Shown: piece by piece, positions 32,567 through 57,896 of the stretch | How the letters are laid out: the number at the start of each line of letters is the position of its first letter | Numbering within the stretch: the stretch's first letter is position 1 | Assembly (NCBI GenBank): GCA_964035575.1 | Contig: OZ037836.1 | Location: 992,001 to 1,056,000, forward strand | Direction of reading: 5' to 3' | DNA length: 64,000 nucleotides | Origin: Rhynchopus sp. YZ270_cl-10 | Lineage: Eukaryota | The notes under the pieces: model-generated | What the model was told of the DNA's origin: nothing | What the model saw: only the letters and a program-made list of their open reading frames with translations | Databases searched by the model: none | Translations under genes and position numbers: made by a program

Positions 32567-34960
32567 TTACGTAGTCTTTGCGTGGAATGGGTCCTCTGAA
32601 AAGCCAAAGGAGAGGGGCTTGAAATGCCTTTTGTTGATCGACTCCAGGATGTGACTGAGACGCGGGGGGAGCTCGGGGAGCGGGCTGGGTAGTGCGTCGA
32701 ACTTCTCCTCCAGAACAGACCTGACGACGCTGTTCTGTGCAAGCAGATCGCCTCCTTCGTTCCTGTCAGCCTCCAGCTGGTACATCCACTCCTCATTCTT
32801 GGACTCCTTCTTGTGTACAATGTTCCATATCATCCTGGCATTGGACTTCGGGTGAATGCATTTGTGGATGAGCTCTAGCTCGAAGACACTTCCCACCTTC
32901 TCGCGCATCTTGTTGTCCAGTGTGCACTTCAATGTGAGGGTTTTGTTTAAGGTCTCGAGAAGCTGGACCCACATCACGTCGTCGGAGATCACTGTGAAGC
33001 GCCTGGATGTCATTGTCCCGATGTTGCCAACGCGCGCCGAGCCTGAGGCCACGGCACATGAGAGGTTGAAGTTCATCGCAGGGACCTCGCGAAGTGCGTT
33101 GCTGGCATCTAATGACGCATCGCAAGCAAGCGTGGCACTGCTGTACACAGCGCGTGCTGCGTTCCATGTGAACAGCAGGCGGTCACCTGACATCGTGTCC
33201 AGGACCCCTTGGTACGACATCGCCAGCGCCACCACGGTGCCCACAAATAAGCTGCTCTGCTCGAGAACAAGCCTCTCGGTGGCGGACTGTGCTGTCCACC
33301 CACACTTCACCAAATTGAACTGTGCCAGTGTGACGCTCTTCTTCTCGAGGTACAGTGACAGCCGCACCCCCGCAGACACCTTTTTCACTTTACTGGAGAG
33401 GCTGCTGGCATGTCCGCTAGGCCGGGTTGAGTGGGACGTTTGCGATGCTGATGTCGTATTCTCTACGCCGATGCTGCTGCGGTCGTCGTCCACAACGTCG
33501 TCCGGTTGTATGGCTGCAGGCATGAAGGCCTTGAACTCTTGGATGCGTGCCGCCGTTGCTGTCATGCCGTCCACCACCGTGCGCACCTCCCGCACCATCA
33601 AGCACCGTGTCTGGTATGTGGCCACCTCGTCCATCGCGATCTCAGTATGCATATCCCCCAGCGCTGTGATGGCTGCCGACAGACGCTTCAAAGGGAAAGC
33701 GATGAACACAGACTCCATGATGGCCACCGTCATGTCAAACACCAACACAAGCACAGTAAACAGAATCAGGAAGATGAGCGCCTCGACAAACTTGCTTTGC
33801 ACAGCACTGACAGGCTGCAGCCACACGAGCACCAGGTCTTTGTGCGGTGCAGGGGCACGGCGGATGTAGTGCTCACTCCCGTCCAGGGACGACTTCCCAA
33901 AGTACATCGCACCCTCTCTGGACAACGCTGCGACACCCTCTTGCGCCACTAGCGGAAGCGTGCTCACCGTGCGCACACAGTCATCCGTGGCGACACTCAG
34001 CTCACGCCCCGCGGTGCACTCCGCGCGCGCCATGCCACCGTACGTCGACGCGTACACGATGCCGCTCTTGAGCTCCACCAGGAACGCGATCTTCTCGGGG
34101 TGGTCACGGCCGAACTCATCAAACGCCTTTTGGAACGTGTTGTACATCAGGCCGACGTACACCCCCACCGCCTTGTACGTGCTCCACGGGTGTGGTGGCG
34201 GCGGTGGCGGGAAGATGAAATCGAGCATGGCATAGAAGTAAAGATTGTTGTCGTACGCACGCCACTGCGTCATCGACGTCCACTGCGACGCGGCAGCACC
34301 GGCCAGAAGGTTCTTGTTGGGGAAGCCTGTGTCCGTGGTGTAGTCCTTCAGGTGCTGCACCCGGAAGGGGTCCAGGTAGCGCCGCTTTGCGTTGAACTCA
34401 TACACGTACTGATCGATGTAGCCTGTAGTGTTGTGCAAAGCATAGCACGGCACCATCATGCCCTCAACGTCCGTCCCATCTGGGGTCAACGGAAACAAAG
34501 CCGGGCCAAGGTTCTTGTAGTACGACCCGAACACATATTCCTTATTCCCGTCGGCGGTAAGGTCGGCCCACACCGACGACCAGAAAGCCGAGCTGTTCGT
34601 TGGGTCGTGTGTCGCGAGGGCTACCTGGGACGCATGAAGTGCAGGAACCGACCTGACCTGCGAGAAGACAAAGGAACGCACCAGGTGGGCCCATTCTGTG
34701 TTGTTGTTGTTCTTGATGCGTTCCTGCGAGTACATGAAGTACTTGAGCGTGAGCACGGAGCCTTCGACAGCCTGCACTACCTCTCTGATCTCCGACTGCA
34801 ACCCTGCCACCTCTGCACGGCTGGACTGCTCCACAGTGTCTTCCAGCGATTCAATACCTTGGTAATAAAGGATTAAACCACCCGCCATTGACGCACAAGT
34901 ACTGACCAAAGCTGAGATGATGATGAGCACAAGCACAGGTATGTCAAGACGGAAGCCCAT
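32567..34960 (-). CDS. Receptor-type class III adenylate/guanylate cyclase-like membrane protein (2 TM, extracellular sensor, HAMP-like linker, degenerate cyclase domain), 797 aa
   Basis: TM1 IPVLVLIIISALV.., TM2 FLILFTVLVLVF.., HAMP-like PLKRLSAAI..VREV, cyclase motifs GVLDTMSGDRLLFTWNA and SGSARVGNIGT..RFTVIS; intronless. Confidence 0.8.
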   Translation of the reverse strand: MGFRLDIPVLVLIIISALVSTCASMAGGLILYYQGIESLEDTVEQSSRAEVAGLQSEIREVVQAVEGSVLTLKYFMYSQERIKNNNNTEWAHLVRSFVFSQVRSVPALHASQVALATHDPTNSSAFWSSVWADLTADGNKEYVFGSYYKNLGPALFPLTPDGTDVEGMMVPCYALHNTTGYIDQYVYEFNAKRRYLDPFRVQHLKDYTTDTGFPNKNLLAGAAASQWTSMTQWRAYDNNLYFYAMLDFIFPPPPPPHPWSTYKAVGVYVGLMYNTFQKAFDEFGRDHPEKIAFLVELKSGIVYASTYGGMARAECTAGRELSVATDDCVRTVSTLPLVAQEGVAALSREGAMYFGKSSLDGSEHYIRRAPAPHKDLVLVWLQPVSAVQSKFVEALIFLILFTVLVLVFDMTVAIMESVFIAFPLKRLSAAITALGDMHTEIAMDEVATYQTRCLMVREVRTVVDGMTATAARIQEFKAFMPAAIQPDDVVDDDRSSIGVENTTSASQTSHSTRPSGHASSLSSKVKKVSAGVRLSLYLEKKSVTLAQFNLVKCGWTAQSATERLVLEQSSLFVGTVVALAMSYQGVLDTMSGDRLLFTWNAARAVYSSATLACDASLDASNALREVPAMNFNLSCAVASGSARVGNIGTMTSRRFTVISDDVMWVQLLETLNKTLTLKCTLDNKMREKVGSVFELELIHKCIHPKSNARMIWNIVHKKESKNEEWMYQLEADRNEGGDLLAQNSVVRSVLEEKFDALPSPLPELPPRLSHILESINKRHFKPLSFGFSEDPFHAKTT

Positions 34961-35770
34961 CGCAACTTCCTGAAAAATAAGTTTTCAGTCTCTCCGTGGC
35001 TGAATTATTGTGTGCTGTTAACCCTGTTGCGGGTGTGGCGAGGTAGTTGTGGTCTGGGGACGAGGTGTAGTTATTCCACAAAAAATAAAATAGAATCTTG
35101 CGCCAGACTGTCCTTATCCCAAAATAAAATGAAACACCACCCCTTCTTTATTCGTTGTTGTTTGTTGATCGCATCCATCCTTTTTTCACAACCAAAAATT
35201 CCGAAAAACACCCGAAACCCCGCGTCCTGAAGTACGGGGGAGAAGTGGAGCACAAAAGGGGAGAAGGCGAGAACGGCAAGACTCATGGCAACCGAAGAGC
35301 ACGTCTTTCCTTTCCAGACGTATTGCATACTCGCACAAAAATAATTTGACGGCCAAAGTAAGTTTTGGGATCCGGGGATGTTCTGGGTGATTTGGCGTCT
35401 TTATTTGTGTTGCGAGCTACAGGAAATGTTGCTCGTATTCATCGCGAAAATCCGCACCAGGCTATAAAAAAAACAGAGAACATATGCTTTGCTTCTCTTT
35501 CTTTATGATCGTTCTTGCTTTGCATTGATGCATCCACACGATTTCTCTTTCACCCTGACGACCGACCGCTTGAACCGCTCTTGTTATTGGTTCCGTTGTC
35601 TTCCTGTTCAAAAACACTTGACCCCCCGTCTTTAAAAAAATAGTGTCCCCATTCGTATATTTCGAATTTCGCAGAAGAAACCTCTTGTCTGTGCGGTACA
35701 TGAAGCTGGTGTAGAGCACAGACATGGATGAGAGAGGCTATCTATGTGGAGAGAGGTGAAAAGGGGGGTA

Positions 35771-36716: not shown

Positions 36717-37484
36717 TCATTGTGCGTGTCTCTGTCGCTTCTGGCTTTGCTCGGGGGATTCGTCTCTGCTTCGTTTCGGACGTGCTTCAACCACAAGCTC
36801 ACTCAGCTCGCCCTTCCTCACTTCGTTGGACACAACACTGCTGCAGCCGGAAAGGTAAATGCTCGTCAACGAAGTGCAGTCCACAGCAAAATGCGTACTA
36901 CCAGTATAAGTATTCAAATCAATAGACGTCACGTTGTTGAGTGGTGATAAATCCAGGGTCCTTAAACTGTTGCAGCTCGCAAGGAAATATGTACCAACCC
37001 GCGTCACTTTGCTCAACCCAGAGAGGTCGAGACTTGTCAACGAGGTGCAGTCATATAGGAAGCCGTCTCCAATGCGAGTCACAATGGACTCAGCACTGAG
37101 ATCAAGTCTCGTCAACGAAGTGTGTGCCAAAAACCAATTCGGAATGACAGTCGCAACCTCCGCCTGCAGAAGCAAACACGCCACCTCAGGATCCTCCACA
37201 CTCTCCAACTTCTTGGCTGTGATGTCGGTCTCACCCAACGCATGAAGCTCTGCAATGGCTTCGTACTTCTGCGACTTCTTCGTGAGGATGATTGTGTCAC
37301 CAGCACTCAGCTGCGTCATGTCCGCTCCTTCTCCCATCGGTTCGCCACCGAAACTCATGCAAAAGCCGTCTTCAGGCAACCCCATTGCAGTCGCCACCTT
37401 CCGCCGCAAGCCCTCCACTGTGTCATCTTCACCCACCTCGACTGTGTGCTGATTCGTGTCGAAACCCTTGATGTTCAGGTCCAT
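36717..37484 (-). CDS. Ubiquitin-like domain + LRR protein, paralog 2 (255 aa)
   Basis: Same architecture as 29464-30228; ATG at 37484; a T-tract + AG lies ~90 nt upstream on the minus strand. Confidence 0.85.
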   Translation of the reverse strand: MDLNIKGFDTNQHTVEVGEDDTVEGLRRKVATAMGLPEDGFCMSFGGEPMGEGADMTQLSAGDTIILTKKSQKYEAIAELHALGETDITAKKLESVEDPEVACLLLQAEVATVIPNWFLAHTSLTRLDLSAESIVTRIGDGFLYDCTSLTSLDLSGLSKVTRVGTYFLASCNSLRTLDLSPLNNVTSIDLNTYTGSTHFAVDCTSLTSIYLSGCSSVVSNEVRKGELSELVVEARPKRSRDESPEQSQKRQRHAQ

Positions 37485-37987
37485 GTCTTTGTTGTGGTTT
37501 TGTGTTCTGATCTCTGTGTGTGGTGGTGGGGTGTGGAGGACAACAAGCCCTGCAGTCCTTTTCAAGAACCTTGCCAAAAAAAAAAATCACGTCATCAAGT
37601 GTTCCTTTTTTGATAGCGGACGGGGGGACGGGTTGTGCAACCAAAGTTAAAGCAAAGGGGTGGGGGTGGAGAAAGAAAATAATGCAAAATTACAGAAGGA
37701 CACCACTAAGCGGTGCACGAAAGGGAAGATGCTCTTGAGTGTGCACTAGGGAGGAGAGGGAACCTAAGACAAGGGGGTGGAGGGGGTGCGGTGGGGGGTA
37801 GGGGGGTAGGGGGGAGGAAATGATCCTGCGCGACAGGTGGGTCGCATACGCTTCACATGTCCACAAACTACGCCACATGGACGCAATGCGCAGACGTAGA
37901 GGCAAACTAACCCACCTGCCCGCCCTCGCCGATCATTCGCGAAAGGGTTCTCTTGCGTTTCCTATCTCTTTCTGGTAGTCTCATCAT

Positions 37988-39482: not shown

Positions 39483-40675
39483 TATATTTATGCCTGAAGC
39501 ACACAAAGTGAGAGAAGAGGGAAACTACAGCGAATCTAACGTCCCAGATCTCTCCTGACAAAGGAAACAGAAAACTATCAGAAAGCTGCCACGACCCAAA
39601 CATTTTATTTCCCACCCCAACAACAACGATAAAGCGTGAAGACAATAGAACGAAAAAAAATTTCTTCACAGTAACAAAGTGTGAGGAAGAAGAAAAGAAA
39701 GCGAATAAAAACGAAAAAACAGTGTTTTTCTGAATGTGATGTTGTTGTTGGGGTGAGGAGAATAAAACAGTTCCAAGAAAAGCTCCTGCGTCGGTTTTCT
39801 TTTGGTTAAAAAAAAATAGGGTGAAAGTCAAATGTATACACATATCACTCATTCTCCGAAATTGCGTATCATTTTTCAGATTTTTCACTCACTCGACCCA
39901 GATGCATATTTTTTATCGTCCGACCCCGGAATTGAACGTTTCGAAACCGCGCTTTCAAAAGAAATAAAAATCTCAAAAAAATAAAAAAAATCTTTTTTCT
40001 GAAATCACCGCGAGAGTTTTTACCTCCCACTCTCAGCAACAGGTGAGAAAAGGACAGATGCATAATTTTTTCTGAAAATACGCGGAATGGTGTTTCCGGA
40101 CTCCAAACTTTTCAAAGAAAAAAAAATCGAGTATTTTAGTCAAAAAACTATTAAATTAAATTGGCTCCATTGTATAATACCCATATATAGGGCAATTCGG
40201 GTGCAATTTGGGTGTAAAAATGGGGTTGGCTCCACCGAAACCTGGCTGACATATAGTATTTTTCCGGCGGAAAAAAATCGTCAGAATTGAGAGAATTGTT
40301 GAAAATAATTCAAAGAAAAAAAAATCGGCAACTTTTGATAAAAACGTTTTTAGTGGAATAAGTCACCGAAAACCACCCAAAAAGGGGTTTCTAACCTGAT
40401 CTCTTAGGAAAGTATAGGGAATACCTGAAAACGCCCCCCTCTCCCAAAATCCTTTGCGACATGAAGAGAGGCATAAAAAAAATCGTCCGACCCCGGAATT
40501 GAACGTTTTCACACCCGATCTTTCACACGGTGCAGTCTGTCCTGGAAATGTCGGACCCTTTTGTCGGAGTCCGAGGGGGTCCGACAGTCGGACCCCCTGA
40601 GTCCGACAGTCGGACTCAGGGGTCCGACTGTCGGACCCCTGAGTCCGACTGCCGGACCCTGGGGTCCGACAGGCA

Positions 40676-40860
40676 CACCCAGGTGCCCAGGTACCCAGGT
40701 ACCCAGGTACCCAGGTACCCAGGTACCCAGGTACCCAGGTACCCAGGTACCCAGGTACCCAGGTACCCAGGTACCCAGGTACCCAGGTACCCAGGTACCC
40801 AGGTACCCAGGTACCCAGGTACCCAGGTACCCAGGTACCCAGGTACCCAGGTACCCAGGT
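40676..40860. repeat. (GGTACCCA)n microsatellite, ~23 copies
   Basis: 8-bp tandem repeat, read directly. Confidence 0.97.
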
Positions 40861-40889
40861 CCAGGTCCAGGAACAGGCACCCAGGAACA

Positions 40890-42145
40890 GGAAAAAAGTC
40901 GTGAAAGAGCAACCACAGCTCCACATGACAAACACAAAAGTGTCCAGTCACGTGGGGCATTCATGCACCGAGGAGATAATGATCCAACAATTTACAAGAA
41001 AGATTACTTAACCTACTGCTGGAAATTGCCAGGTCGTAGTAACACACAAAGTGTGCCTCCGTTCGGGAAGACCGGATATTCTAGAGACCAAAAAGGCCTC
41101 AAGAATATCTTCCGGTAGTCAAGGTATAACCGAGTGAACGGCCCAAGACCCCCGTGGAGAAGTTAAATGTTGTAATGCTATCAGGTAGAAACTGCGAACA
41201 CTGTCTTACCCTCCTCAATGCATGGTGGAAGATGTCTTACACAACCAATATCCTGTACCCAGGTACCCATATTCCCAGACCCACGCAGTACCACGTCGCA
41301 GTACTACGCAAAATTTACCACCAGACCCTGTCTTCGTGCACCTGAAGTACAACGCCGCAGACAGGCCAAACATGCGTTGGACTCAGAGGAATGCCCGCTG
41401 TGCAGGTATCAATGAGAACCAACTCCCAGCAACAAGGGGCGCCTTTTGGCGGGCGTTGTTGAGGGTGTTTGGGGTGCAAAGTTTTCCACAATTTTGATGC
41501 GCGGGTACAGAAGTGTTGTCTTGTTCTTTCATCTCTAGGAATGTAAATGTCAATCGCGTTTAACTACCACGAGGGCTTGTTTAGTGAACCCACGAGGGGT
41601 CGAAGGGGGTTGGTTATCCCATATCTATCAAAGGTTGTGTCGACCAGGCGAATCCACTATGTTACGCTGTATGATGATAAATCCGAAGAAATAACAGTGC
41701 ATAGCAACTGCAGGAAGTTTGTTAAAAAGAGTGCCTCACGCTACACAAACCACCACCCGCGATTGACTTAGATGTTATAACAAAGAGAATTCAGAACAAA
41801 ACAACACCCTGCCCCATACACACTAAATTGTCATGCTTCAAGAACATGCCTGGGCCAAAATTACTATGACGAAAAGGCAACAAGACCACCCACAAGGAGT
41901 GTGAATTGTGCACTGGTTTTCTGGGGGAACGCAATATTTTCTTGTGTCTAGTCCTCTGCAAGCAGAGGACAGACTTTCCGGAAAGTTTCCAAAGGTCGAA
42001 TTTCTTGCACTAGCTATGCTCCCTGGGTTAAATGGCAATAGCAGTGACTGACTTCTGAGAGAAATAGGGTACTTAAAACCCAATTTTCATTGTTTTGGTG
42101 TAATCCTGTTGAGGGATGGTGGGGAGGTGTGGGTGTGGGTGGGTG
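40890..42145 (+). pseudogene. Core repeat containing a decayed Ulp1/C48 cysteine-protease-like reading frame
   Basis: LVIPYLSKVVSTRRIHYVTLYDDKSEEITVHS (His/Asp region) and, in another frame, RQQDHPQGV*..CAL (Gln/Cys region; paralog at ~58770-58810 reads RQQDHPQGVLNCALS); inverted copy at 49790-51090. Confidence 0.45.
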
Positions 42146-42343
42146 AAAAAAAAAAGGGTGGGGCAAGCATTTCATGATGAGATTATGAAGTGAACAACAA
42201 AAAAAAAGAGTGAATACCCAAATGAAAAAAAAACAAAAAAATATTAGTGGAGCACACTCTAGGGTGGCTACACTAATACAACCAACTTTTCAAAAACAAA
42301 AAAACAAAATGCATGATCCTCACCCACTGTACCTGATCTGATA

Positions 42344-44261
42344 CTACGCATGACCTTCACAATGTGCTACCCATTCTTCAGAAGATTGAAACAACAAAAA
42401 ACATAATTTGCATCTGTTCTCTTCAAAAAAAAAATCTGGATGTTTCAACTCCATGTGCCTAGTCAAAGATTTGACTGTTTTGCTACACGGAGATATGGGA
42501 CAAACAGCACTGAGACTGCTGTCTTTCCTGCGATGTGTGTTGTCAATGTGAACCGCAAGAGAATTTGCGGCCATTGGCTTCTCACAAAAATCACACGCCG
42601 CAGTGCCGTCTCCCTCCGGTTCCTCATTCCCTTGTGAACCGTTCTCCTCGTCACACTCTGCAATTGCAGCAGCTTCAAACTCATTAAATTTGTTATCACT
42701 GGCTACAAAAAGCTCAAATTTTTCATCAGATGGAGGGTCTGTAGAACAGATGCACACTTTTGCGCGTCCTCTCCCTTTTGGAAAACGAAAAAGACAGTAT
42801 CCCCCCGAAAAAAAAACAAAACCACTTTTTTTCTCACTGAGTTGCGTGCACAAAACGTACGTCGCGAGTACCATCGCATGCGTGCTACTGATGCAGGGAC
42901 AGAGGATGATGTCCTTTTTCCCCTTTAGCCCTTCATCAGATAGGTCCGCTACCTTCCACGGGGTCTGCCTCGCCCTCCTCGCCACCTCTGAGGTTGCCTG
43001 AATTTCTTCGTAGGTGGCGACACTCGTGTTACTCGCACCACGCTTCCTCTGTCCGTTCTCCTGTTCCTCTGGCTCGTCGTTGTTGAGGAGAGGAACAGCA
43101 TCTAGCGGACTCCACCAGTGCTGCATGCTGTGGCAGTAGGTGCTGAGGGTGCTCTTGGGGGAGACGGTTTCCATGAGGCACAAGAAAACGTGGCCTGCGA
43201 TGCGTGCGCGAAGAAAGGGGAAGAGAGCCGCGGGCTCAGCCTTCGCATGGTGCCTCCAAGGGACGTCGCCGTACCTGAAGTTCGACAGCTCACTCAAAGA
43301 AATGAACATGAGTCTGTCGACGAGGGGGTAATCCGCCAGTTCAGCCATTTTGCGGATCACGTCCCGCATTTGGCTCCCTTTGGAGTTCCCCCCGCTCAGG
43401 TCGTACCTGAAGTGTCGGCACACACTGTCGAAGACACCAGTGGTCTGGGGCTTCATGACATCGCGCAAACTCAGCCATACCCTTGAGGTCGTGCAGGGGG
43501 GGGGCTGACGAAGTGAGCGTTTGGGGCTACTCCTGCGAGGAAAGAAGGAAAGCCGGCATCCGACATCTCTTGCAAGGAGAGGTGGGGAAAGCGGTGCGTC
43601 ATCAGCAGCCACTGCGACATTGGGATGGCACACATGGTACACTTGTGGCCCCTCCCCCCGCAACCCTTCACCTTACACCACTGGTCAAGGTGGTCACCAG
43701 TGATCTTCAGCACGAAGAACCGGCTCACGAGAGTCCGCGGTTTGCCCTTTCGCTCCACGTTCCTCATGACACTTGACCTGTGCACGAGTGCAATATCGTC
43801 AATGAGGGTGCCGTGCTCCCACACCGCATACTCCGCCTTCTTCAGGTCAACCACCGTCAATCCCCTGGTTGATAAGCCGGAGAGGGGGTCTATGATGCCC
43901 ACGGAGAAGCGCGTGCGTGCATTACTCGGTTTCATGCCGAATGGGGTGTAGCCATCACTGTACAGCACCAAGGCCAGCGCAGCTGACGACCTGATGTGGC
44001 CAAGAGCGACAAACTCTTCCTCCAAGTACTCGCATGTACCAAGCAACCCCCTGTGCAGCCTCTCCCTCGTCTCTTCGCGCTGCGGCTCCTCTATGACACG
44101 CATGCGTTTCGGGCTCAACCCCGCGGATTCCCCCGTTTCCTCACGATGACGCTTGTTCGCCTTGCCGAACCACCGCCGGGACGGGCCCTCGCCTTCTAGG
44201 TGCATGGCCTCCAGCGTTTCGGGGAAACTCTGACCTTGCCGTGACTGATCATTTTGTGACA
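42344..44261 (-). pseudogene. RAG1/Transib/CMC-like DDE transposase with three C-terminal C2H2 zinc fingers; frameshifted at ~43465-43505
   Basis: Ordered motifs LVLYSDGYTPF (D1), ITGDHLDQ (D2), GHKCTMC, PPLHDLKG (third frame, across the G9 run), STYCHSMQH and NDEPEEQEN (E); then CDFC..H..H, CPISPC..H..H and CKLC..H..H. Confidence 0.75.
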
Positions 44262-44307
44262 TACTGGGCACTGGAGGATAAATGTGATAAGAAAATGTGT
44301 ACAAATA

Positions 44308-44766
44308 CACGGTGGACTTCGGAATGACATTACGTGACGAGTGATGGGGGCAGAAACGGGGTGAAAATACGCGCGCTACGTCGTCATGACGGGGGCACCC
44401 CCACGTTATGACGACGTCATACCCAAATTTTCGTTGTTTTACCAAAGACAAGTCGATTTTTTGACCCATTTTTTTTTTTTTTGTTTGTTTTTTCCCAAAG
44501 TCGGGCTGGGGACACGATGGTGAAGTAAATGACTTGACTTGTGGTTTCACCGTTGGCTTACAACGGTGAAACCACAAGTCAAGTCATTTACTTCACCATC
44601 GTTGAGGTCATCAAGGAACGCACCCCCTCGTCATGATGACGTCATGATGACGTCATCATGTTGGCGACGTTCGTTGTAATTACGACAGCATGACGAAGTG
44701 TGCCCTCGTCATGATGCCGTAATTACGACGGCATCACTCCCGTAATGTCCTTACGAGCCCACTGTG
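44308..44766. mobile_element. Foldback/MITE with CACGGTGG / CCCACTGTG (Transib-like) ends and an internal 42-bp perfect hairpin
   Basis: Imperfect TIR CACGGTGGACTTCGGAATGACATTACG vs CGTAATGTCCTTACGAGCCCACTGTG; GTCATGAC/TGACGTCA repeats; stem 44514-44555 pairs with 44561-44602; no TSD seen. Confidence 0.55.
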
Positions 44767-45089
44767 AAGGTCAAAATGTTGTTCACCAAAAAAAAAAAAA
44801 AAAACCCTCCCTCTTTTTTTTTTTCTTTTGGATTCTCACTTGATCATGATGCATGGTACGAAAGCAAAAAGAGGGGGGGAAATCACATGTAAGGGACTCC
44901 ATCTTATCTTATTGTGTGAAACAGACTAACATGACAACGCTAGATACGACTGCCAACGCAGAACGGGGTCCCAAATGCAGTACCGACCCCCAGTGAACCG
45001 TATAAACGGTTCACTGGGGGGGGAGGTCCTCAGGGAAAATAGATAACAAGAAAACAACAAAGGATACCAGTAAAAATTTGAAAAAAAAA

Positions 45090-46241
45090 TCAGAGGTTTT
45101 CAACAACCTGGGTTTGCGGGTTTCCGGAAAAAGCATCCTGTGAAAGGACGGTGACACCGGCCGATGGTAACATCGACTCACCCTCACCCTCCTCCTCCTC
45201 CTCCTCCTCCTCTTCCCCTTCCCCGAGGTCCACCCCCATCAGATCGATGTACTTCTGGCGGTCCACCTTGCCCAGCCCCTGCCTGCTCTCCTTCACCTGC
45301 TCCATAACAATCTGTGTAGTTATTATTGGATAACAGTCAAAAAGTTGCAGGAAAAGGTACCAAGTAACACACCTTTACCTCCCACAAGGCAATCTGCCCG
45401 TCAACAGGAGCGCAGGAAATGGCCTTGTCCTCACGGGATGGGCGGGGCAAGAAGTAATCCACCCTGTACACACCCGAGGGATGGGTTGAGCCTTCGGGCA
45501 CTCTGCGCGTACACTGCAGGTCAACCTTATTCGCATTCACAAGGTATGCGATGTCGACAAAGCACCCTTCGATGCGCATTGTGTGCGTGTCGTTTTCGAC
45601 AGGAAGAGGGGTGAGGGTGGGGAAAGTCTTCTCCTGCAGAGTCGACAGCTGCGCCTTAGGCTTCGCTGAGTAGAGCGAGCACATATCACAGTCCCTGTAC
45701 TTAGGGAGGATGCTCTCCCTCACTCGCACGTAGAGTTTGTTCTTGGCAGAGGTTTCTGCTTTCCACCCAGTGATCATGAAAGAACGAAGACACACACCAT
45801 ACAGCTGCACAAGGTGCTTGCCGTCTGTTGCCCTCTTGGCGACCTATGTATACAAATGAATGTAGTAGCATAGTGTAATACCAAATAAGGGAGCATACCT
45901 TATAGTATGATGGCAACCTTTTGTCTTCAGTCGCGGCGTCGTGTTGGGTCACGCTGAGCTTCGTGTCCAGTCCCGGGTACACGTTCACCAATGCGTTCAT
46001 CATGGTGGGGGAGTTGGGGTGCACAGTGGCGCCGGTGATTCTCGCATATAAAAGTTTTAGATGCGAGAGCACCATCACGTTCCCTGCTTGCGACTGGGTG
46101 TACAGTGATAAAGTCAGTCTCCGGTGTATTCGCCTTTGCCGGTTGTGGTTGTCCATTCTGGTCCTCCCTTTTCCTTTTTCCAGACGCAGTCGGTGCCGCT
46201 TTGGCTGCCGGTTTGGGTGCCGCTTTGGTTTTGGGTGCCAT
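45090..46241 (-). CDS. Unknown protein with basic N-terminus and acidic C-terminal tail; two short GT-AG introns and one apparent frameshift
   Basis: ATG at 46241 (MAPKTKAAPKP..KRKR); frame change near 46110. Intron 45844-45898 joins YYK|VAKR in frame; intron 45312-45372 (or -45378) joins in frame to IVMEQ..EEEEEEEEE..VVENL*. Confidence 0.65.
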
Positions 46242-47230
46242 TTTTTGATGTGTTTGAGTCTGAGAAAAGGAAATGGGGAGACAGACACAAAAGCAAAAAA
46301 GGGAAGGCTCGTTTTTCCATTTATTGTTACAGTAACAATTGTTACTTTGTAACAATAAATGAAAAAACGAGCCTTCCCAAAGAGGCAAAAAAAATCACTT
46401 TCCCATCCCGCCGGGGTATACGCAACCGTACTGTATTCCGCAAACCCGTAAACCCTTGCGGGTTTACGGGTTTGCGGAATACATTATTGTTCTTTTTTTT
46501 ACTGGTATCCTTTTGTTGCTTTCTTGTTCTTTCTTTTATCCCCCAAAAACCATCATATCTCTTACCGATCGCCCTGGTTTGGACCAACAAAAAAAAAAAA
46601 AACCCCCCCCAAAGAAAATGAGTTTTAATGAAGTTTTCGCTTAAAATCCATTAAAACCCCCTTGACCGGCAGTCGGGGCTCGTGTTGTCATGCTAGTCTG
46701 TTCCCCCCCCACACCAAAAAAATGATGTGCAAAAATCATGTGTTTTGACCATGTCCGGGTACACCAAATACACACATCTCTGAACAAGCCTATACCCAGT
46801 AGTAGGCAACAAGGCCATTTTTTGACCAAAAAATAATTTCCCCCTCCCAAAAAAATTGGGCGTGGTAGGTCATAAAATGGCCCAAAAAATCCAAAGAAAA
46901 CCTCAGATTGACCAAACAAGGAAAAAAATTTTCAAGTCAAATTTTCAGTCAAAATACGGCTATTTTGGTTATAGCATGTGTACTGTAGTGACTATACAAG
47001 GCGATTTTCGGCCAAAAAAATTTTTTTGGCCGAAAAAAAAAATTTTTTTTTCGGCCCAAAAAAAATTTTTTTTTTTTTTTTTTTTTTTTTTGCATTTTTT
47101 TTGCATTTTTTTTTTTTTTTTTTTTTTTTTGCATTTTTGGATTTTTTTTCATGCTTTTTCTGTAACCTCTCTCTCTTTTACGGCAGGTGACCGGTTGAGG
47201 CGATACTTCCGGACTGAGGAAGGGCATTCT

Positions 47231-49177
47231 TTTACTTTTTTATTTGCCTGGAGGGGGTACGGGGCGGCCTCTTGTAAGTTTGTTTTTGTTTGTAGTCTTT
47301 TGTTGGTTTAGGGGCGTGGCTGACGACACGATGAACCTCCTTGGTTCAAAGCTGTTAACGACGTCTAGCCAGGCCTGGCTGTACACTCTAGTCTATAAAA
47401 GGGGGAGGGGGGGGGAAACGAAAAAGGAAAAGTAGAAAAATGGTGACTCTAGTGTCTATGTGGCGTTTCGACGACGCGTCTGCACAAGGCTCCGCAGGCG
47501 ATTGTACAGCTCCGCCGACTTCTTCAGCTCCCACTGGTTCAACATCGGCTTCACTGCATTCCTCCACCGCCCACAGTACTCGAAAGCCTCCGCTGCCGTC
47601 AGTCCGTACCCACCTTGGGAGCTGAAATGAGTGGTATTGGGATAGAACAGTCCCTCCCACTCTTCGGCCGTCTCTGGAGTAGGCAAGTCAAACCCGGGGC
47701 AGGGCGCTATGTCATTCCATACCGGCACAGAGTTCGGGAGGGCTGGTGGTGCGGATTGGGAGCCACTCTCCGATGTTGTGTCTGTGCTGGGGACCGATGA
47801 TGCGCCTGGCAAAGGAACTGCGGGTTGGGACCTGTCGAGGAGGTCCGCGGAGTACGCACTGCCTTGCGAGGCGTCGTGTGGCTGTTCACTCGTGTCAGCG
47901 CGGGAGTGAGCTGCCTCAGAGGACGTGAATACGGGGGGGGCTGGGGTGGTGTTTGAATAGCCACTCCCCGTATGTGTCCTGGTGGGCTGCACCTGCGATG
48001 AAGCGGTTGGCGGAACAGCGTGGGGCTGCACTCTCGTGTTGGAGGTTGAGGGAGCTGCTGCAACAGGCGCGGGTACGGGGAGGGCTGAGTGGGTGTTGGA
48101 ATAGCCACTCTCCGTATGTGCCTGATGCTGCTGAGACGCGGCCGATCCAGCAAGCGACTGCGACGAGGTGCCAGGTTGGACAGGGGTCTGCTCTACGTGG
48201 GGCGCACACGAAGTAGGGAGGGCTGGTGCTGTGTTAGAGTAGCCACTCTCTGCTTCGGACTTCGCAAGGTTACGGAGCCGGCCGCCAAGCATCGAAGCCC
48301 ACTGCTGGTCCCCCCCACTCAAACTCGGCTTCATTGCCTCCCACCAACGAGTGAAGCACACTAGAGCGTTAGCAGCTGACATAGACGCGCCCTCGGGATC
48401 GGCGTGAGTGGCAACGGGGTAGAACAAAACCCGCCACTCCTCTGGGGTCGCTGGGATCGGCCTGTTGTACCCAGGGCAGGGCGCCAAGTCGTTCCAGAAA
48501 ATCACATTGCTCGGGCACGGGAGGGCTGAATTGGTGTTGGAGTAGCCACTCGCCGTAGGTGTCTGATGTTGCTGAGGCTCGTCTGAAGCAGAGGGCGCTT
48601 GCGAGGTGTTAGGCTGGGGAACAGCGTGCGCGACGTGGGGCACCGAGGGCGCGGAGGCGGCAGGGAGGGCTGATTGTGTGGTAGAGTAGCCGCTCTCCTG
48701 TCCCTTGACGTCCGATGGTGCCTGTCTCATGGTGTCGTGTAGCTGTGCCCTCCTCATCTTCGCAGCCTCCGTGCTCTTAGCCACCCGGACTTGTTTCTGA
48801 TCCTTCACCAGGCTGTTGCTCTTGGGGTCCGTCGTCACCGTGCGCTCCGTCTTCTTCACAGAGCGCGGGTTGCTGGCGACCGGTAGGGCACGAGGGCAAG
48901 TTGAACCTAGGGGAAGACACGACAGGCACGCCCACCCCACGCACTCCCGACACTGCCAGTGGCGTTCACTGCCAAGAACAGCAGCCAAGCACAACTCGCA
49001 TCGCCCGAAATCCGCCCTCGTTTCGTCCTGAGGATAGTCCAGCAGAGCCTCGCGAGACACACATGTGAGCGACGGCAGGCGCGGGTTCGGCTCTTGCATC
49101 AGGAGGTACTGCGTCAGCTTCTCGGGGATGGTGACCGGTGTGAAGTGGCCCGCTACGTGACCGTCGTGGGCCAGCGT
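47231..49177 (-). mobile_element. 5'-truncated non-LTR retroelement copy (OTU C-terminal end, zinc finger, ESGYSNT repeats); ORF 47456-49177
   Basis: Divergent paralog of 60700-62254 including the 3' UTR ending CCAGGCAAATAAAAAA; starts at LAHDGHVAGHFTPV. Confidence 0.75.
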
Positions 49178-49610
49178 TTTTTTTGGGTCCGACTGTCGGA
49201 CCCCAGAGTCCGACAGACGGACCCCAGAGTCCGACAGTCGGACCCCCTGAGTCCGACTGTCGGACTCCAGAGTCCGACTGTCGGACTCAGGGGGTCCGAC
49301 TGTCGGACTCAGGGGGTAAGTCTGTTTTCGACACACTCTAAGCACGACAGACTGCACCGTGCAAAATAAAAAAAAAATAAATTTTTTTTTCTGGGGCGCG
49401 AGAAATTAGTAGGATCCGCCCGTCAACTCACACAGACGTTTAATGACCTCAGGGTGCAATATTTTTTTGCAAAAAGGCGCGGAATGGCATTTCCGGAGCG
49501 ATCTGAAAAATTCCGGGGTCGGAGAATTTTTTTAGTGAAAAAATAGTCACTTTAAATTGGCTCCATGGTTGGTCACAAGTGATACGCAGTTTCGGAGAAT
49601 GAGTGATATA

Positions 49611-51396
49611 CACAGGGTTATAGTCAGATCTATACACTCATTGTATATACAATTGTCAATTGTACATACAATTGTATAGAAATTGTATAGATCTGACTAT
49701 TTGATGTACAATCCCAACTTTTTTTATAGTCAGATCTATACAATTTATGTACAATCCCAGTACACAGGTTTGGCCAGGTTTCTGGCTATTGCCTCCCACC
49801 TACCCACACACACACCCACCCCTACAGGACTATACACAAAAAAATGGAAATTGGGTTTCGCACACCCGATTCTTCTCAGAAGTCAGTCACTGCTATTGCC
49901 ATTTAACCCAGGGAGCATAGCTAGTGCAAGAAATTCGACCGGAAACCTTCCGGAAAGTCTGTCCTCTGCTTGCAGAGGACTAGACACAAGAAAATATTGC
50001 GTTCCCCCAGAAAACCAGCGCACATTTCACACTCCTTGTGGGTGGTCTTGTTGCCTTTTCGTCATAGTAATTTTGGCCCAGGCATGCTCTTAAAGCATGA
50101 CAATTTAGTGTGTATGGGGCAGGGTGTTGTTTTGTTCTGAATTCTCTTTGTTATAACATCTAAGTCAATCGCGGGTGGTGGTTTGTGTAGCGTGAGGCAC
50201 TCTTTTTAGCAAACTTCCTGCGGCTGCTAAAGTGTTATTTCTTCGGATTTAACAACGTACAGCGTAACATAGTGGTTTAGCCTGGTCGACACAACCTTTG
50301 ATAGATACGGGATAACCAACCCCCTTCGACCCCTTGTGGGTTCACTGAACAAGCCCTAGTGGTAGTTAAACGCGATTGACATTTACATTCCTAGAGATGA
50401 AAGAACAAGACAACACTTCTGTACCCGCGCATCAAAATTGTGGAAAACTTTGCACCCCAAACACCCTCAACAACGCCCGCCAAAAGGCGCCCCTTGTTAC
50501 TGGGAGTTGGTTCTCATTGATACCTGCACAGCGGGCATTCCTCTGAGTCCAACGCATGTTTGGCCTGTCTGCGGCGTTGTACTTCAGGTACACGAAGACG
50601 GGGTCTGGTGGTAAATTTTGCGTAGTGTCGCATTCCCTCATGTGTGGGTCACTCACACTTGCGGTCATGTGCCACTGCGTGGGTTTGGGAATTTGGGTAC
50701 CTGGGTACAGGATATTTGTTGTGAAAGACATCTTCCACCATGCATTGAGGAGGGTAAGACAGTGCTCGCATTTTACTTGAAATCATTACAACATTTAACT
50801 TCTCCACGGGGGTCTTGGGCCGTTCACTCGGTTATACCTTGACTAGCGGCAGAGGCCTTTTAGGACTCTATAACTCCGATATTCCCGAACGGAGGCACAC
50901 TTTGTGTGTTACTACGACCTGGCAATTTCCAGCAGTAGGTTAAGTAATGTTTTCTTGTGAATTGGTGGATCATTATCTCCTCAGTGCATGAATGCCCCAC
51001 GCGACGGACACTTTTGTGTTTGTCAAGTGGACTGTCTGGTCACTTTTCAGTGACTGGCGGGTTGGCTGTGGTTGCTCTTTCACGACTTTTATCCTTGTAT
51101 CCAGTGTACCGTGTACCTGGGTACCTGGGTACCTGGGTACCTGGGTATGGCGTGTACAATCTCCCTCGAGTGTACAATCCAAAAATTGTATAGATCTGAC
51201 TTTTGTATAGTCAAATCTATACAATTTGTGTACGACCTAGTGTATACTGGGATTGTACATAAATTGTATAGATCTGACTATAAAAAAAGTTGGGATTGTA
51301 CATCAAATAGTCAGATCTATACAATTTCTATACAATTGTATGTACAATTGACAATTGTATATACAATGAGTGTATAGATCTGACTATAACCCTGTG
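49611..51396. mobile_element. 1.79-kb non-autonomous element with ~155-bp near-perfect TIRs
   Basis: TA|CACAGGGTTATAGTCAGATCTATAC ... GTATAGATCTGACTATAACCCTGTG|TA; interior is the core repeat plus (GGGTACCT)n. Confidence 0.85.
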
Positions 51397-53129: not shown

Positions 53130-55430
53130 TTACCAATCAAACTCGTCGTTTTTTGCTGTGCTGTACCCCCCAAACGCCACGTCATCTTCACTCACCCGCA
53201 ATTTCCCTTGCACGTCGCCATTTATCAGGAGCTGGGTGCGCATACAAAAATTTCCAACAGTGGTGCGTGCACGTTTTTTGTTGCACGAGAGCTTGTACGA
53301 CGTCGAAAATCCACGACTCAACAAGTGTCACGCAAGGTGATATGTCCAAGACGCAGAACACAAATTTTTTCAGCACCTCGTACGAATCGTCCAGCATTTT
53401 CCAGAGATCCCGAACAGGATATCCCTGAGTGATGACATTGGGGTCATCAAGCCAGCGGAGCAGGGCACTCTCGACCTCGTCAGTGAACCAGGGCCCCAAC
53501 AAAAACACTGGGACCGAACCCCGCCTTCAAGAGCGCCACAGCACTTTGACCAGTTAACTTCAAAAGGCCTGGAACAAGGAGACTTCCGGCGGAAAATTGG
53601 GGGAAATTGGGGGGAAATTTGGGGGAAATTTTTGTGCTTGCGAAAAAAATTTCCAAGTTCGGTTCCGAGTTCCTTTGCCCCAGTATGCTCCATTGAGCTC
53701 AGTTCTGTGGTCATCTTCTCGAACGAAGTATGCAGGGTGAGGATAGGGGGCACTGTGCCGGACGGATCCGCCACACCGTCCATGAGCTTTGAGGGGACAT
53801 CCATGACCTCGGAGCACGCCACCACTTGCTCCCACAGAGACACAGTGTCCGTGTCATGCAGCAACTGCACGAGTGCGCGGATGCTCTTGCAGACAGATGC
53901 TCCATACTTCTGTCTCTCTTCTGCGCAGAAGGCCATAATAGCCAATCTACGCTCGGACACATGCCTCAAGAGTTTGGTGAGGGAGTTCCAGCGTGTGCCC
54001 TTGGAGTCCACCATAGACTTCGCCTTGGGCTCTGCAGTTTCTGTTTGGTGTAAGTCACCCAACAGTTTCTCCGTCTCCTCCAGAGTACCGGGGGTTATCG
54101 AAGGGTAGGTCACAAAAAATTTTGCAAGCATAGTTGACAAAGTATCAGGCAGGACAAAACTTGAAGCACCAAGGATGTTCTGAAACTCCTGGTAAGCCTT
54201 CTCGTGTGGCCCGTTTGCAGATGGCGCAGCCAAATTCTGTGCTTTTTGCGCGCTGATGTACCTCGACGCCCTAGTTGGGGCGTTAAAAAATGCTTTCCGC
54301 AGCAACACCACCAACTCCCACACCGCTGGATAGTGTTTTTTTACAAAATTTTTCATGATATTGTGTATCCCGTGACCCACACACAAGAAGATCAAGAGTT
54401 CTGTTGCTGCTTCAGAGGCTCCCTGAGATAGAAAAAAGAAAAGTATAAATAATAAATAATAAATAAATAAAAGAACCGAAAAGACACAAAACCACACCTT
54501 AATATTGTACGTCGCGCTGTCCATCACTACATGCCTCATGTTGGGGTACTTCTCTGTGACGTGTTTGAGTATTATTTTGATGACTTCAAAGTCTGTCGTC
54601 TCTCCGGCTGCTATCATGTAGTTGTCGAACCACAACTCAGAGGGCAGTGCCCTCATCCCTATCACATGGTGTTTTGCCATGAGGCCGCCGTCCAATCCGA
54701 ATCCTGTGGAAGCACGCAGCTGTGGTGCCAAGAAGTCGAGGTGTCCTGAAAAATTGAGGTAAGCTTCTTGCCCACTCTTCGAAGGCGGGGAACTCGGCGT
54801 CATACGTGACCCTGACGAAGCTGGCCATCATTGCTGCTTCACCGTCTGTGATGCCGGAATAGAGGCAGGCTCGCGCAAACAGAGCGTTCCTCTCATTTTT
54901 CGTCGACGGTGCAGTAGTACGGTTGGTTTTTTTGGCCTTCGTGTGGGGGTTCTGGTGCTGTAGGGACTTGGTATGCTGCTTGAGCGCGGTGTAGTTGTGC
55001 GGCTGTCACACCTGGTTGCACCTCGTGTCGAAGATCAGCTTCTCATTTTGATCTTCGCCGGCCGCGATGAACATGTCTCGGTCTTTTTCTGGGAGATCGG
55101 ACACAGTTTTTATGGTGTATCCCAACTGCTCCAGCTCGAGGCGATTATCGCGAAACACCTCTGAGGCTGAGCTGCTGCCTTTGCGCGACCGCTTTTTGGG
55201 GGTGTCGTCTTTCTTTTTTGGAGTGAGCTTTTCCTCCTGTTTTTTTTCCTGCTCCTCCTTCACCTTCGAGGCCAGCGAGTCGGCGGTCTTCTTGGTGCCG
55301 ACTTTCAGCTTTTTTGTTGGGGGCTCCTTGTTTTCGCAAGAGTCTTCGTCGACATCTTTACCTTTTGCAGCCTGGGTCGGTTGTTGTTGTTCTGATTTGT
55401 CTGCCGACTTCCTCTTGCTTGTTTTTGCTT
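53130..55430 (-). pseudogene. Inverted, frameshifted copy of the hAT transposase lacking the start codon
   Basis: Reverse complement of 55620-57896 with indels near 54970-54930, 54780-54745, 53620, 53495, 53317 and 53150; intron 54423-54497. Confidence 0.9.
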
Positions 55431-55601
55431 TTGGTTATCGATAAATGTGTTATGTCTGTTGGTAGGGCGGGTTTTTGAAATTTAGTGAGTTGTCCCCAGA
55501 TACTCCCTGTTTGGTTTTCGAGTGCTTTTTGTACTTCACACTACCTACTAATTTCAAAAACCCGCCCTACTAACAGACATAACACATTTGTCATTCTCAC
55601 C

Positions 55602-57896
55602 ATGCCAAAACCAAGAGGAAAAACAAGCAAGAGGAAGTCGGCAGACAAATCAGAACAACAACAACCGACCCAGGCTGCAAAAGGTAAAGATGTCGACGAA
55701 GACTCTTGCGAAAACAAGGAGCCCCCAACAAAAAAGCTGAAAGTCGGCACCAAGAAGACCGCCGACTCGCTGGCCTCGAAGGTGAAGGAGGAGCAGGAAA
55801 AAAAACAGGAGGAAAAGCTCACTCCAAAAAAGAAAGACGACACCCCCAAAAAGCGGTCGCGCAAAGGCAGCAGCTCAGCCTCAGAGGTGTTTCGCGATAA
55901 TCGCCTCGAGCTGGAGCAGTTGGGATACACCATAAAAACTGTGTCCGATCTCCCAGAAAAAGACCGAGACATGTTCATCGCGGCCGGCGAAGATCAAAAT
56001 GAGAAGCTGATCTTCGACACGAGGTGCAACCAGGTGCGACAGCCGCACAACTACACCGCGCTCAAGCAGCATGCCACTACCCTACAGCACCAGAACCCCC
56101 ACACGAAGGCCAAAACCAACCGTACTACTGCACCCTCGACGAAAAATGAGAGGAACGCTCTGTTTGCGCGAGCCTGCCTCTATTCCGGCATCACAGACGG
56201 TGAAGCAGCAATGATGGCCAGCTTCGTCAGGGTCGCGTATGACGCCGAGTTCCCCGCCTTCGAAAGAGTGAGCAAGAAGCTTCCTGTTATTTTTCAGGAC
56301 GACCTCGACTTCTTGGCACCACAGCTGCGTGCTTCCACAGGATTCGGATTGGACGGCGGCCTCATGGCAAAACACCATGTGATAGGGATGAGGGCACTGC
56401 CCTCTGAGTTGTGGTTCGACAACTACATGATAGCAGCCGGAGAGACGACAGACTTTGAAGTCATCAAAATAATACTCAAACACGTCACAGAGAAGTACCC
56501 CAACATGAGGCATGTAGTGATGGACAGCGCGACGTACAATATTAAGGTGTGGTTTTGTGTCTTTTCGGTTCTTTTATTTTTATTTTTCCTTTTCTTTTTT
56601 CTATCTCAGGGAGCCTCTGAAGCAGCAACAGAACTCTTGATCTTCTTGTGTGTGGGTCACGGGATACACAATATCATGAAAAATTTTGTAAAAAAACACT
56701 ATCCAGCGGTGTGGGAGTTGGTGGTGTTGCTGCGGAAAGCATTTTTTAACGCCCCAACTAGGGCGTCGAGGTACATCAGCGCGCAAAAAGCACAGAATTT
56801 GGCTGCGCCATCTGCAAACGGGCCACACGAGAAGGCTTACCAGGAGTTTCAGAACATCCTTGGTGCTTCAAGTTTTGTCCTGCCTGATACTTTGTCAACT
56901 ATGCTTGCAAAATTTTTTGTGACCTACCCTTCGATAACCCCCGGTACTCTGGAGGAGACGGAGAAACTGTTGGGTGACTTACACCAAACAGAAACTGCAG
57001 AGCCCAAGGCGAAGTCTATGGTGGACTCCAAGGGCACACGCTGGAACTCCCTCACCAAACTCTTGAGGCATGTGTCCGAGCGTAGATTGGCTATTATGGC
57101 CTTCTGCGCAGAAGAGAGACAGAAGTATGGAGCATCTGTCTGCAAGAGCATCCGCGCACTCGTGCAGTTGCTGCATGACACGGACACTGTGTCTCTGTGG
57201 GAGCAAGTGGTGGCGTGCTCCGAGGTCATGGATGTCCCCTCAAAGCTCATGGACGGTGTGGCGGATCCGTCCGGCACAGTGCCCCCTATCCTCACCCTGC
57301 ATACTTCGTTCGAGAAGATGACCACAGAACTGAGCTCAATGGAGCTTACTGGGGCAAAGGAACTCGGAACCGAACTTGGAAATTTTTTTCGCAAGCACAA
57401 AAATTTCCCCCAATTTTCCGCCGGAAGTCTCCTTGTTCCAGGCCTTTTGAAGTTAACTGGTCAAAGTGCTGTGGCGCCCTTGAAGGCGGGGTTCGGTCCC
57501 AGTGTTTTTGTTGGAGGTGCAGGTGCCTGGTTCACTGACGAGGTCGAGAGTGCCCTGCTCCGCTGGCTTGATGACCCCACTGTCATCACTCAGGGATATC
57601 CTGTTCGGGATCTCTGGAAAATGCTGGACGATTCGTACGAGGTGCTGAAAAAATTTGTGTTCTGCGTCTTGGACATATCACCTTGCGTGACACTTGTTGA
57701 TCGTGGATTTTCGACGTCGTACAAGCTCTCGTGCAACAAAAAACGTGCACGCACCACTGTTGGAAATTTTTGTATGCGCACCCAGCTCCTGATAAATGGC
57801 GACGTGCAAGGGAAATTGCGGGTGAGTGAAGATGACGTGGCGTTTGGGGGGTACAGCACAGGCGAGGAGACAGAGGACGACGATTTTAATTGGTAA
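55602..57896 (+). CDS. hAT-superfamily transposase with one 63-nt intron (56547-56609)
   Basis: FGLDGG (D1), VVMDSATYN (D2), CVGHGIHN (CxxH), GTRWNS, and VDRGFS at the ERxFS position; degenerate N-terminal Zn-finger-like DTRC..H..H; GT..polypyrimidine..CAG intron. Confidence 0.8.
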   Translation: MPKPRGKTSKRKSADKSEQQQPTQAAKGKDVDEDSCENKEPPTKKLKVGTKKTADSLASKVKEEQEKKQEEKLTPKKKDDTPKKRSRKGSSSASEVFRDNRLELEQLGYTIKTVSDLPEKDRDMFIAAGEDQNEKLIFDTRCNQVRQPHNYTALKQHATTLQHQNPHTKAKTNRTTAPSTKNERNALFARACLYSGITDGEAAMMASFVRVAYDAEFPAFERVSKKLPVIFQDDLDFLAPQLRASTGFGLDGGLMAKHHVIGMRALPSELWFDNYMIAAGETTDFEVIKIILKHVTEKYPNMRHVVMDSATYNIKVWFCVFSVLLFLFFLFFFLSQGASEAATELLIFLCVGHGIHNIMKNFVKKHYPAVWELVVLLRKAFFNAPTRASRYISAQKAQNLAAPSANGPHEKAYQEFQNILGASSFVLPDTLSTMLAKFFVTYPSITPGTLEETEKLLGDLHQTETAEPKAKSMVDSKGTRWNSLTKLLRHVSERRLAIMAFCAEERQKYGASVCKSIRALVQLLHDTDTVSLWEQVVACSEVMDVPSKLMDGVADPSGTVPPILTLHTSFEKMTTELSSMELTGAKELGTELGNFFRKHKNFPQFSAGSLLVPGLLKLTGQSAVAPLKAGFGPSVFVGGAGAWFTDEVESALLRWLDDPTVITQGYPVRDLWKMLDDSYEVLKKFVFCVLDISPCVTLVDRGFSTSYKLSCNKKRARTTVGNFCMRTQLLINGDVQGKLRVSEDDVAFGGYSTGEETEDDDFNW

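Follow-up and report, generated by a model that had tools for sequence, protein, structure and literature searches.

A terminal-inverted-repeat transposon with a predicted RAG1-like transposase fold, from what is probably an undescribed CMCT lineage of diplonemids

Introduction

Among DDE transposases, the CMCT clade comprises CACTA, Mirage, Chapaev, Transib, Plavaka, ESTA, Lanisha and RAG1. The report that defines it lists C(2)C and H(3-4)H motifs, CA..TG ends and target-site duplications (TSDs) of 2–5 bp as the shared characters (Kojima 2025, PMC12730594). Here we describe an element with these characters at positions 40526–49361 of a 64,000-nucleotide stretch of contig OZ037836.1 (hereafter the window), encoding a DDE transposase and a candidate second gene, gene B.

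The described members of the clade differ in their ends, duplications and gene content. ESTA, which was recognised through its similarity to RAG1, duplicates TA, and PlavakaA also has a 2-bp TSD; PlavakaA ends in TGT..ACA and PlavakaB in CATCA..TGATG (PMC12730594). In animals, CACTA elements end in CAC and duplicate 2 bp of their target (PMC1636069, PMC6004678), and CACTA elements encode a second product, as in TnpA/TnpD (PMC1636069). The TSD of Chapaev is 3–4 bp (PMC4079192). Transib has a 5-bp TSD and termini composed of a heptamer, a 23-bp spacer and an A-rich nonamer (PMC1131882), but TSD length is reported to be labile within Transib, and one element of that lineage reportedly has a 2-bp TA duplication (10.64898/2026.08.26.747230). 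RAG and Transib excise by a nick-and-hairpin reaction (PMC10629977). CNEST is a recently named CMC lineage (PMC12810828), and the protist element AanRAGL carries a RAG2L gene in co-orientation (PMC9435367). The DNA transposons named for the Diplonema papillatum genome include TATE, MULE and Helitron, and none of these is of the present type (PMC10161547). Literature searches for a diplonemid element of this kind gave none among the matches listed.

With fair confidence, we read the element as a cut-and-paste transposon that was likely active recently and that belongs to a CMCT lineage without a name so far, probably one of diplonemids.

Results

Element ends and target site

Both tips of the element carry the perfect 16-bp terminal inverted repeat (TIR) CACGGTGCAGTCTGTC (Table 1). 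The two tips account for all exact matches to the TIR in the window, while shuffled sequence is expected to yield a mean of 0.27 matches even when three mismatches are allowed. Inward of the TIR, the left and right ends are identical at 5 of 29 positions (17–45) and then at 44 of 51 in the next block. A palindrome, GTCCGAC-W-GTCGGAC, starts 54, 76, 97 and 118/119 bp inward from each tip, with the two arrays in register, and all ten of its matches in the window fall inside these subterminal arrays, four on the left and six on the right.

Empty alleles were found in three of four runs (X6, X5 and X2), in which contigs leave the window sequence at 40525, carry a single CA and then continue into the right flank. 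A paralogous host repeat at 39908 agrees with this reading of the empty site. Because the empty alleles and the paralogous repeat carry CA once, the 2-bp CA duplication is established, and because contigs of X1, X2 and X6 start at exactly 40526, so is the boundary. Bounded by TIRs and flanked by a 2-bp duplication, the region is an insertion, which bears out what the first-pass annotation had proposed. Other left junctions begin at 40524; CA therefore often precedes the element, though not in every case.

The same annotation likened the ends to the heptamer of the recombination signal sequence (RSS). The CACGGTG tips are present as stated, but their likeness to CACAGTG is weak: of the 2432 7-mers of the window that start with CAC, 206 (8.5%) differ from that heptamer at no more than one position. 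A nonamer match of 6/9 is found at the right end at a 23-bp spacer; over four tests, such a match has a probability of 6% by chance, and this spot is altered in the abundant form of the end. The left end has no nonamer at 12 or 23 bp (1/9). A 12/23 asymmetry of the RSS type was rejected as not significant, given that chance level.

Table 1. Features of the element, with window coordinates
Feature	Position	Strand	Basis or remark
Left TSD (CA)	40524..40525	.	Empty alleles
Left TIR, 16 bp	40526..40541	+	Contigs of X1, X2 and X6 start here
Left subterminal array, four 15-bp palindromes	40579..40657	.	Period 21-22 bp
GGTACCCA tandem run and high-copy repeat (40804-42145)	40686..42145	.	Probably nested
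DDE transposase gene (intact form, 639 aa)	42344..44262	-	Two frameshifts in this copy (43496, 43468)
Three C-terminal C2H2-like zinc fingers, residues 557-639	42347..42595	-
Catalytic codon D103	43954-43956	-	Transposase gene
Catalytic codon D190	43693-43695	-	Transposase gene
Catalytic codon E400	43064-43066	-	Transposase gene
Gene B, predicted 343 aa	45090..46241	-	Candidate accessory gene
High-copy host repeat	46710..47230 (approx.)	.	Probably nested
5'-truncated non-LTR retrotransposon-like ORF fragment (649 aa)	47225..49176	-
Right subterminal array, 6 palindromes	49187..49308	.
Right TIR, 16 bp	49346..49361	-
Right TSD (CA)	49362..49363	.	Empty alleles

Transposase gene and its relatives

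The transposase gene is intronless and is preceded by a polypyrimidine-AG acceptor. In the window its open reading frame (ORF) is split into two pieces by the two frameshifts of Table 1. All four runs examined have unbroken letters at both positions, so the frameshifts are either specific to this copy or assembly errors. Intact 639-aa copies on other contigs (P0001 and P0004) differ from one another at one residue, and the window pieces likewise differ from P0004 at one. An intron in place of the two frameshifts was rejected on account of the intact copies and the unbroken run sequences. The motifs SDG, GD, CTMC, LH, YxHxxxH and EPEEQEN, listed in this order by the first-pass annotation, recur in that order in P0001 and P0004, and the three C-terminal C2H2 fingers it reported are confirmed as C2H2-like. 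A second family also has near-identical copies (P0005 and P0007, 99.9%). Since the intact copies differ at one residue in 639 and those of the second family are near-identical, the element was likely active recently.

Relatives were sought among 1.84 billion representative proteins at E<=0.001. Forty proteins matched; the weakest, a zinc-finger-only match, was dropped, and the other 39 match the family core, none of them named as another family. Word-indexed homologue searches returned just one or two proteins each, and locus scans of viral, metagenome and prokaryote genome sequences contained no relative. The clusters of ten relatives were looked up, and the three that are named are all diplonemid transcriptome proteins, from Lacrimia lanifica and, twice, Rhynchopus euleeides. 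The GTATG donor predicted in gene B fits the diplonemid splice-donor consensus (PMC12621601). Together, the named relatives, the acceptors before both genes and this donor point to a diplonemid host and to diplonemids as the probable range of the family, and the protist host suggested earlier is supported as probable.

Residue conservation was counted in a 41-row alignment that excludes near-duplicates and the finger-only match, over the rows that cover each column. The catalytic residues are near-invariant (D103 in 21/21, D190 in 25/25 and E400 in 25/26 rows), and the zinc-site histidines are kept (H257 in 27/28, H378 in 25/27 and H382 in 24/26), as is C211 (27/27). In a tree of 22 members, restricted to family proteins, the window enzyme falls in a subclade supported at 100/100 with a Lacrimia protein. 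Three C2H2-like motifs are present in 10 of the 22 tree rows, several of the others being fragments. One relative, P0018, ends in CX2CX4HX4C in place of C2H2 fingers, a spacing like that of the CTT1 tail of RAG1L/Transib or of a zinc knuckle; tails have been swapped within the family. A distant family member, the P0029 cluster, has near-identical copies on many large contigs, and is for this reason probably a further young family in a related assembly.

Predicted fold and family affinity

An AlphaFold model built with a 38-row alignment reached a pLDDT of 92.2 and a pTM of 0.82, compared with a pLDDT of only 31 for a single-sequence model. In the model, the DDE triad conserved in the alignment sits in a predicted RNase H fold interrupted by a helical insertion. 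Foldseek ranks 1–45 as listed are RAG1, BbRAG1L or HzTransib, with a best E of 1.5e-6 and 11–16% identity. In a wide VIA search the model matched RAG1 at Z 18.8 (rmsd 4.3, 402 residues aligned), BbRAG1L at 16.4 and the P element at 15.1, and lower down HzTransib at 14.3, ISCth4 at 10.3 and Hermes at 9.6. In a second VIA comparison RAG1 was again best (Z 21.8, rmsd 4.3, 404 aligned), followed by HzTransib (Z 18.1, rmsd 4.9, 394 aligned), the P element (15.3) and Hermes (10.4). Z varies with conformation, from 13.9 to 21.8 for RAG1 and from 11.1 to 18.1 for HzTransib, and identity to either in the structural matches is about 12%.

Model residues ∼10–434 (to 12–434) align with RAG1 460–1001, and residues 9–12 meet RAG1 459–461. 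A start at this point leaves no room for a nonamer-binding domain. The transposase is predicted to have a RAG1-like fold that lacks this domain. Residues 440–540 are barely covered by the fold comparison. RAG1 is best partly by default, because the ranked fold lists show no CACTA, Chapaev, Mirage or Plavaka structure, an absence that ranks nothing.

Sequence comparison reached no named family, in line with the earlier claim that no close described family exists. A BFVD fold search gave nothing beyond a weak hAT match, and sequence and profile searches of PDB returned zinc fingers only, with no RAG1 or Transib. P0001 matches no Pfam transposase or other family at E<=10, and a Pfam scan of 37 members at E<=1 has no transposase among the 25 most often matched of 52 families. 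Transposase_21 (PF02992) gives no HMM match, yet is the top match by Atlas language-model features, at 0.96 for the N-terminal half (182 shared features), followed by Plavaka at 0.94. The whole core has unnamed clusters at 0.93 and RAG1 at 0.92, so that RAG1, CACTA Transposase_21 and Plavaka are alike its Atlas neighbours. On the conserved triad and the predicted match to RAG1, BbRAG1L and HzTransib, the enzyme is one of RAG1/Transib/CMC type, as the first reading of its core had it and as the structural comparison that reading called for indicates.

Gene B

The first-pass annotation had also claimed a co-oriented partner gene. The sole plausible partner is gene B, and if the 649-aa ORF at 47225–49176 was meant, the claim was wrong, that ORF being a retrotransposon fragment. 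Gene B is predicted to have two introns (45898–45844 and 45378–45312) and one inferred frameshift near 46118, and it is preceded by a polypyrimidine-AG acceptor, as the transposase gene is. It is present in four of four runs. Its contig depth, a measure not equal to copy number, is close to that of the transposase in X1 (304–307 versus 329–343) and in X6 (2.0 versus 2.0–2.16). A 42-bp imperfect inverted pair flanks it (45036–45076 and 46496–46537). Its exon pieces, searched singly rather than as the spliced product, have no Pfam or PDB match and no kelch or PHD domain, and the predicted product looks nothing like RAG2. By-eye likenesses to an RFX-type winged helix (45902–46123) and an alpha-crystallin-like domain (45379–45620), both on the minus strand, were unsupported in Pfam and PDB.

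Near-perfect palindromes lie upstream of both genes (44514–44602, 46301–46378, 46429–46486 and 44987–45020). Since those at 44514–44602 and 46301–46378 sit in high-depth bins, each could be a small MITE or a common type of regulatory hairpin.

Foreign pieces inside the element

The element is a mosaic with nested foreign pieces. The high-depth repeats at 40804–42145 and ∼46710–47230 both occur outside the element as well, the first of them with an inverted copy at 49797–51147 (88%). The protein of the 47225–49176 fragment is 75% identical over its last 278 residues to that of a longer ORF at 59510–61981, and the fragment ends abruptly beside an A run at the right array, beyond which X1 and X5 contigs continue past 49176 into other sequence, while an X6 right-end contig goes on into a longer A run. 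It is a nested retrotransposon fragment, and as a truncated copy of the ORF at 59510–61981 it was rejected as a partner gene. The longer ORF (plus strand), the source of the fragment, is itself 5'-truncated and has a Cys-rich part. It carries motifs resembling those of CRE/SLACS-type non-LTR retrotransposon endonucleases and of OTU domains, which Pfam and PDB leave unconfirmed; for an OTU-like part to follow such an endonuclease may be uncommon.

Other features of the window

A long, near-perfect inverted duplication (53156–57861, 97–100%) contains an 805-aa ORF and a partial mirror copy, and is either a real palindrome or an assembly artefact. The ORF has hAT-like DDE motifs and no Pfam match. 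A tandem array at 12979–24240 holds 28 copies of a 406-bp unit, and in the 300 nt compared 27 copies are identical; Rfam had no match in the window, this array included. A host block is tandemly duplicated (25796–27309 and 32567–34984; 29464–30405 and 36717–37586), its genes by eye encoding a cyclase-like membrane protein and a ubiquitin-like/LRR protein.

Discussion

Several observations weigh against the favoured reading of the span as one CMCT transposon with its own transposase and partner. The pairing of TIR and transposase is shown by one copy only, and no contig joins the two. The X6 transposase contig has 538 letters 3' of 42268 without a listed match to 40870–42267, and the matches listed hold no record of that contig's length at the left end. 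In X4 and X5, some contigs pass from 42296 to 46585 and leave out both genes. The right end of the window copy departs from the abundant end form at four positions (49323–49330), and gene B depth is uneven in X4 (862–3358 versus 677–1250 for the transposase). C208, the first Cys of the C(2)C motif of the clade, is kept here but in only 7 of 27 rows of the alignment, 19 having Ser; H206 (22/28) and H223 (25/27) are possible substitute ligands, and the Lacrimia protein of the same subclade keeps both cysteines. In favour of the pairing, the TIRs are plausible for this enzyme because the type of end and the TSD fit the clade to which the enzyme belongs. Contigs of the ends greatly exceed those of the transposase in depth (9946 versus ∼340 in X1 and 25.8 versus 2.16 in X6), which suggests that many non-autonomous copies share these ends.

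The alternative that survives best leaves the transposon with a single gene and makes gene B passive cargo or a separate small element. It would account for the inverted pair around gene B, the uneven X4 depth and the lack of any known family for its product, whereas the matching depths in X1 and X6, the presence in every run and the acceptor shared in kind with the transposase gene argue for a partner; we regard the one-gene form as a substantial but lesser possibility.

The family may instead be a divergent member of a named CMCT superfamily, most likely EnSpm/CACTA, or else of ESTA, Plavaka, Lanisha or a CNEST-like group. Subterminal repeats are a CACTA trait, and with the CAC ends, the 2-bp TSD and the second product they make up a CACTA-type layout, to which the top Atlas match of the N-terminal half adds; ESTA was likewise recognised by RAG1 similarity (PMC12730594). 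Against this stand the Pfam results for P0001 and the member scan, and the 39 core matches of which none is named otherwise. The context of E400, DExxExxNGxRK, is also like RAG1/Transib and not CACTA. Membership in a named superfamily is in our view less likely than not.

A basal position within Transib/RAG1, nearer to RAG1 than to the CMC elements and with gene B in the position of RAG2, is unlikely. It draws on the best structural match, the RAG1 clusters of the whole-core Atlas search, the right-end nonamer match at exactly 23 bp and the one relative with a CX2CX4HX4C tail. However, RAG1 wins partly by default and Z swings with conformation, the TSD is 2 bp and not 5, the left end is without a nonamer and the right-end match has a 6% probability by chance and is altered in abundant copies, no nonamer-binding domain is predicted, and the gene B pieces have neither a kelch nor a PHD match. 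A bolder version is similarly improbable. It would make the family a superfamily-level RAG1-fold branch across diplonemids, still mobile and closer to Transib/RAG1 than to CACTA, in which zinc fingers reading phased palindromes replaced the nonamer-binding domain, the stagger is 2 nt and a non-RAG2 partner was recruited independently.

Least probable is that the TIRs are those of a non-autonomous element that gathers cargo, which the transposase and gene B entered separately, like the retrotransposon fragment and host repeats, with other ends or none: the three foreign pieces, the excess of ends over transposase, the joints that skip both genes and the absence of a TIR-to-gene contig suit it, but ends and a TSD of this sort are what the enzyme class would lead one to expect, no second TIR pair with a TSD surrounds the genes save the imperfect pair of gene B, and the skipping joints, with their short sides and intervening letters, may mark deletion derivatives or else repeats that are shared.

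For the favoured cut-and-paste transposon, two CAC ends would be brought together and excised by a dimer of the transposase, probably through the nick-and-hairpin route of RAG and Transib. Joining to the target would be staggered by 2 nt, in many cases at CA, and so produce the duplication. The phased palindrome arrays may confer specificity for the ends, being read either by the C-terminal zinc fingers or by a gene B product in a role like that of CACTA TnpA. This enzyme would also trans-mobilise many shorter copies that share the ends, and the window copy would later have gained two host repeats and the retrotransposon fragment.

Such an element extends the CMCT/RAG1-fold transposases to Euglenozoa. 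Because the ends, the TSD and an intact enzyme of a complete, apparently young element are in hand, it offers a usable comparison of 2-bp with 5-bp stagger on one fold and of end recognition that dispenses with a nonamer-binding domain, and it is a possible insertional tool for diplonemids. It is likely not a special ancestor of RAG, and the account of RAG origins is unchanged, since RAGL elements of protists have been published before, as have several CMCT lineages that are still unplaced.

Two features that were first thought unusual are common among the known systems. A 2-bp TSD lies within the 2–5 bp norm of the clade and recurs in animal CACTA, ESTA, PlavakaA and one Transib-lineage element, and a co-oriented second gene is found in CACTA (TnpA/TnpD) and AanRAGL. 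With the CMCT clade as a whole the element shares the DDE triad in a predicted RNase H fold, the C(2)C motif (CTMC in P0001), the H(3-4)H motif and LH histidine, and CA..TG termini with a TSD in the clade's range. It differs in having no sequence match to the member families, Ser for the first Cys in most relatives, an extra C-terminal Cys-rich domain with three C2H2-like fingers, and probable diplonemid hosts.

From Chapaev it differs in TSD length (2 versus 3–4 bp). ESTA and PlavakaA/B, of fungi, have in common with it a 2-bp TSD, CMCT motifs and a RAG1 likeness by remote comparison. ESTA is set apart by description, as it duplicates TA, whereas the present family has CA here and before other left junctions; PlavakaA/B are also set apart by description, from an element with CACGG..CCGTG ends. 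Animal-type EnSpm/CACTA (SmTRC1, ENS1_Cis) shares the 2-bp TSD, the CAC..GTG ends (ENS1_Cis), the second product and, as a general trait, subterminal repeats, while the present element has no Pfam Transposase_21 match and an intronless transposase gene apart from gene B.

Transib (HzTransib, PDB 6pqx and 6pqn) resembles it in fold (Z 18.1), compact size and the spacing from the second D to E, 210 aa in the element and presumably similar in HzTransib. The TSD is a 2-bp CA at an AT-rich site rather than 5 bp and GC-rich, an A-rich nonamer is not present at each of the two ends (6/9 at the right, 1/9 at the left), and the element has subterminal palindrome arrays and a second gene. The RAG1 core and BbRAG1L (PDB 6xnz, 4wwx and 6b40) match the predicted fold over ∼400 residues and share CAC-starting ends, and AanRAGL shares a co-oriented second gene upstream. 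Compared with RAG1 and RAGL, identity is ∼12%, with no nonamer-binding domain and no RAG2-like gene found; compared with RAGL/ProtoRAG, the TSD is 2 rather than 5 bp, and the ends show neither a 12/23 pair nor the asymmetry of RSS-like TIRs.

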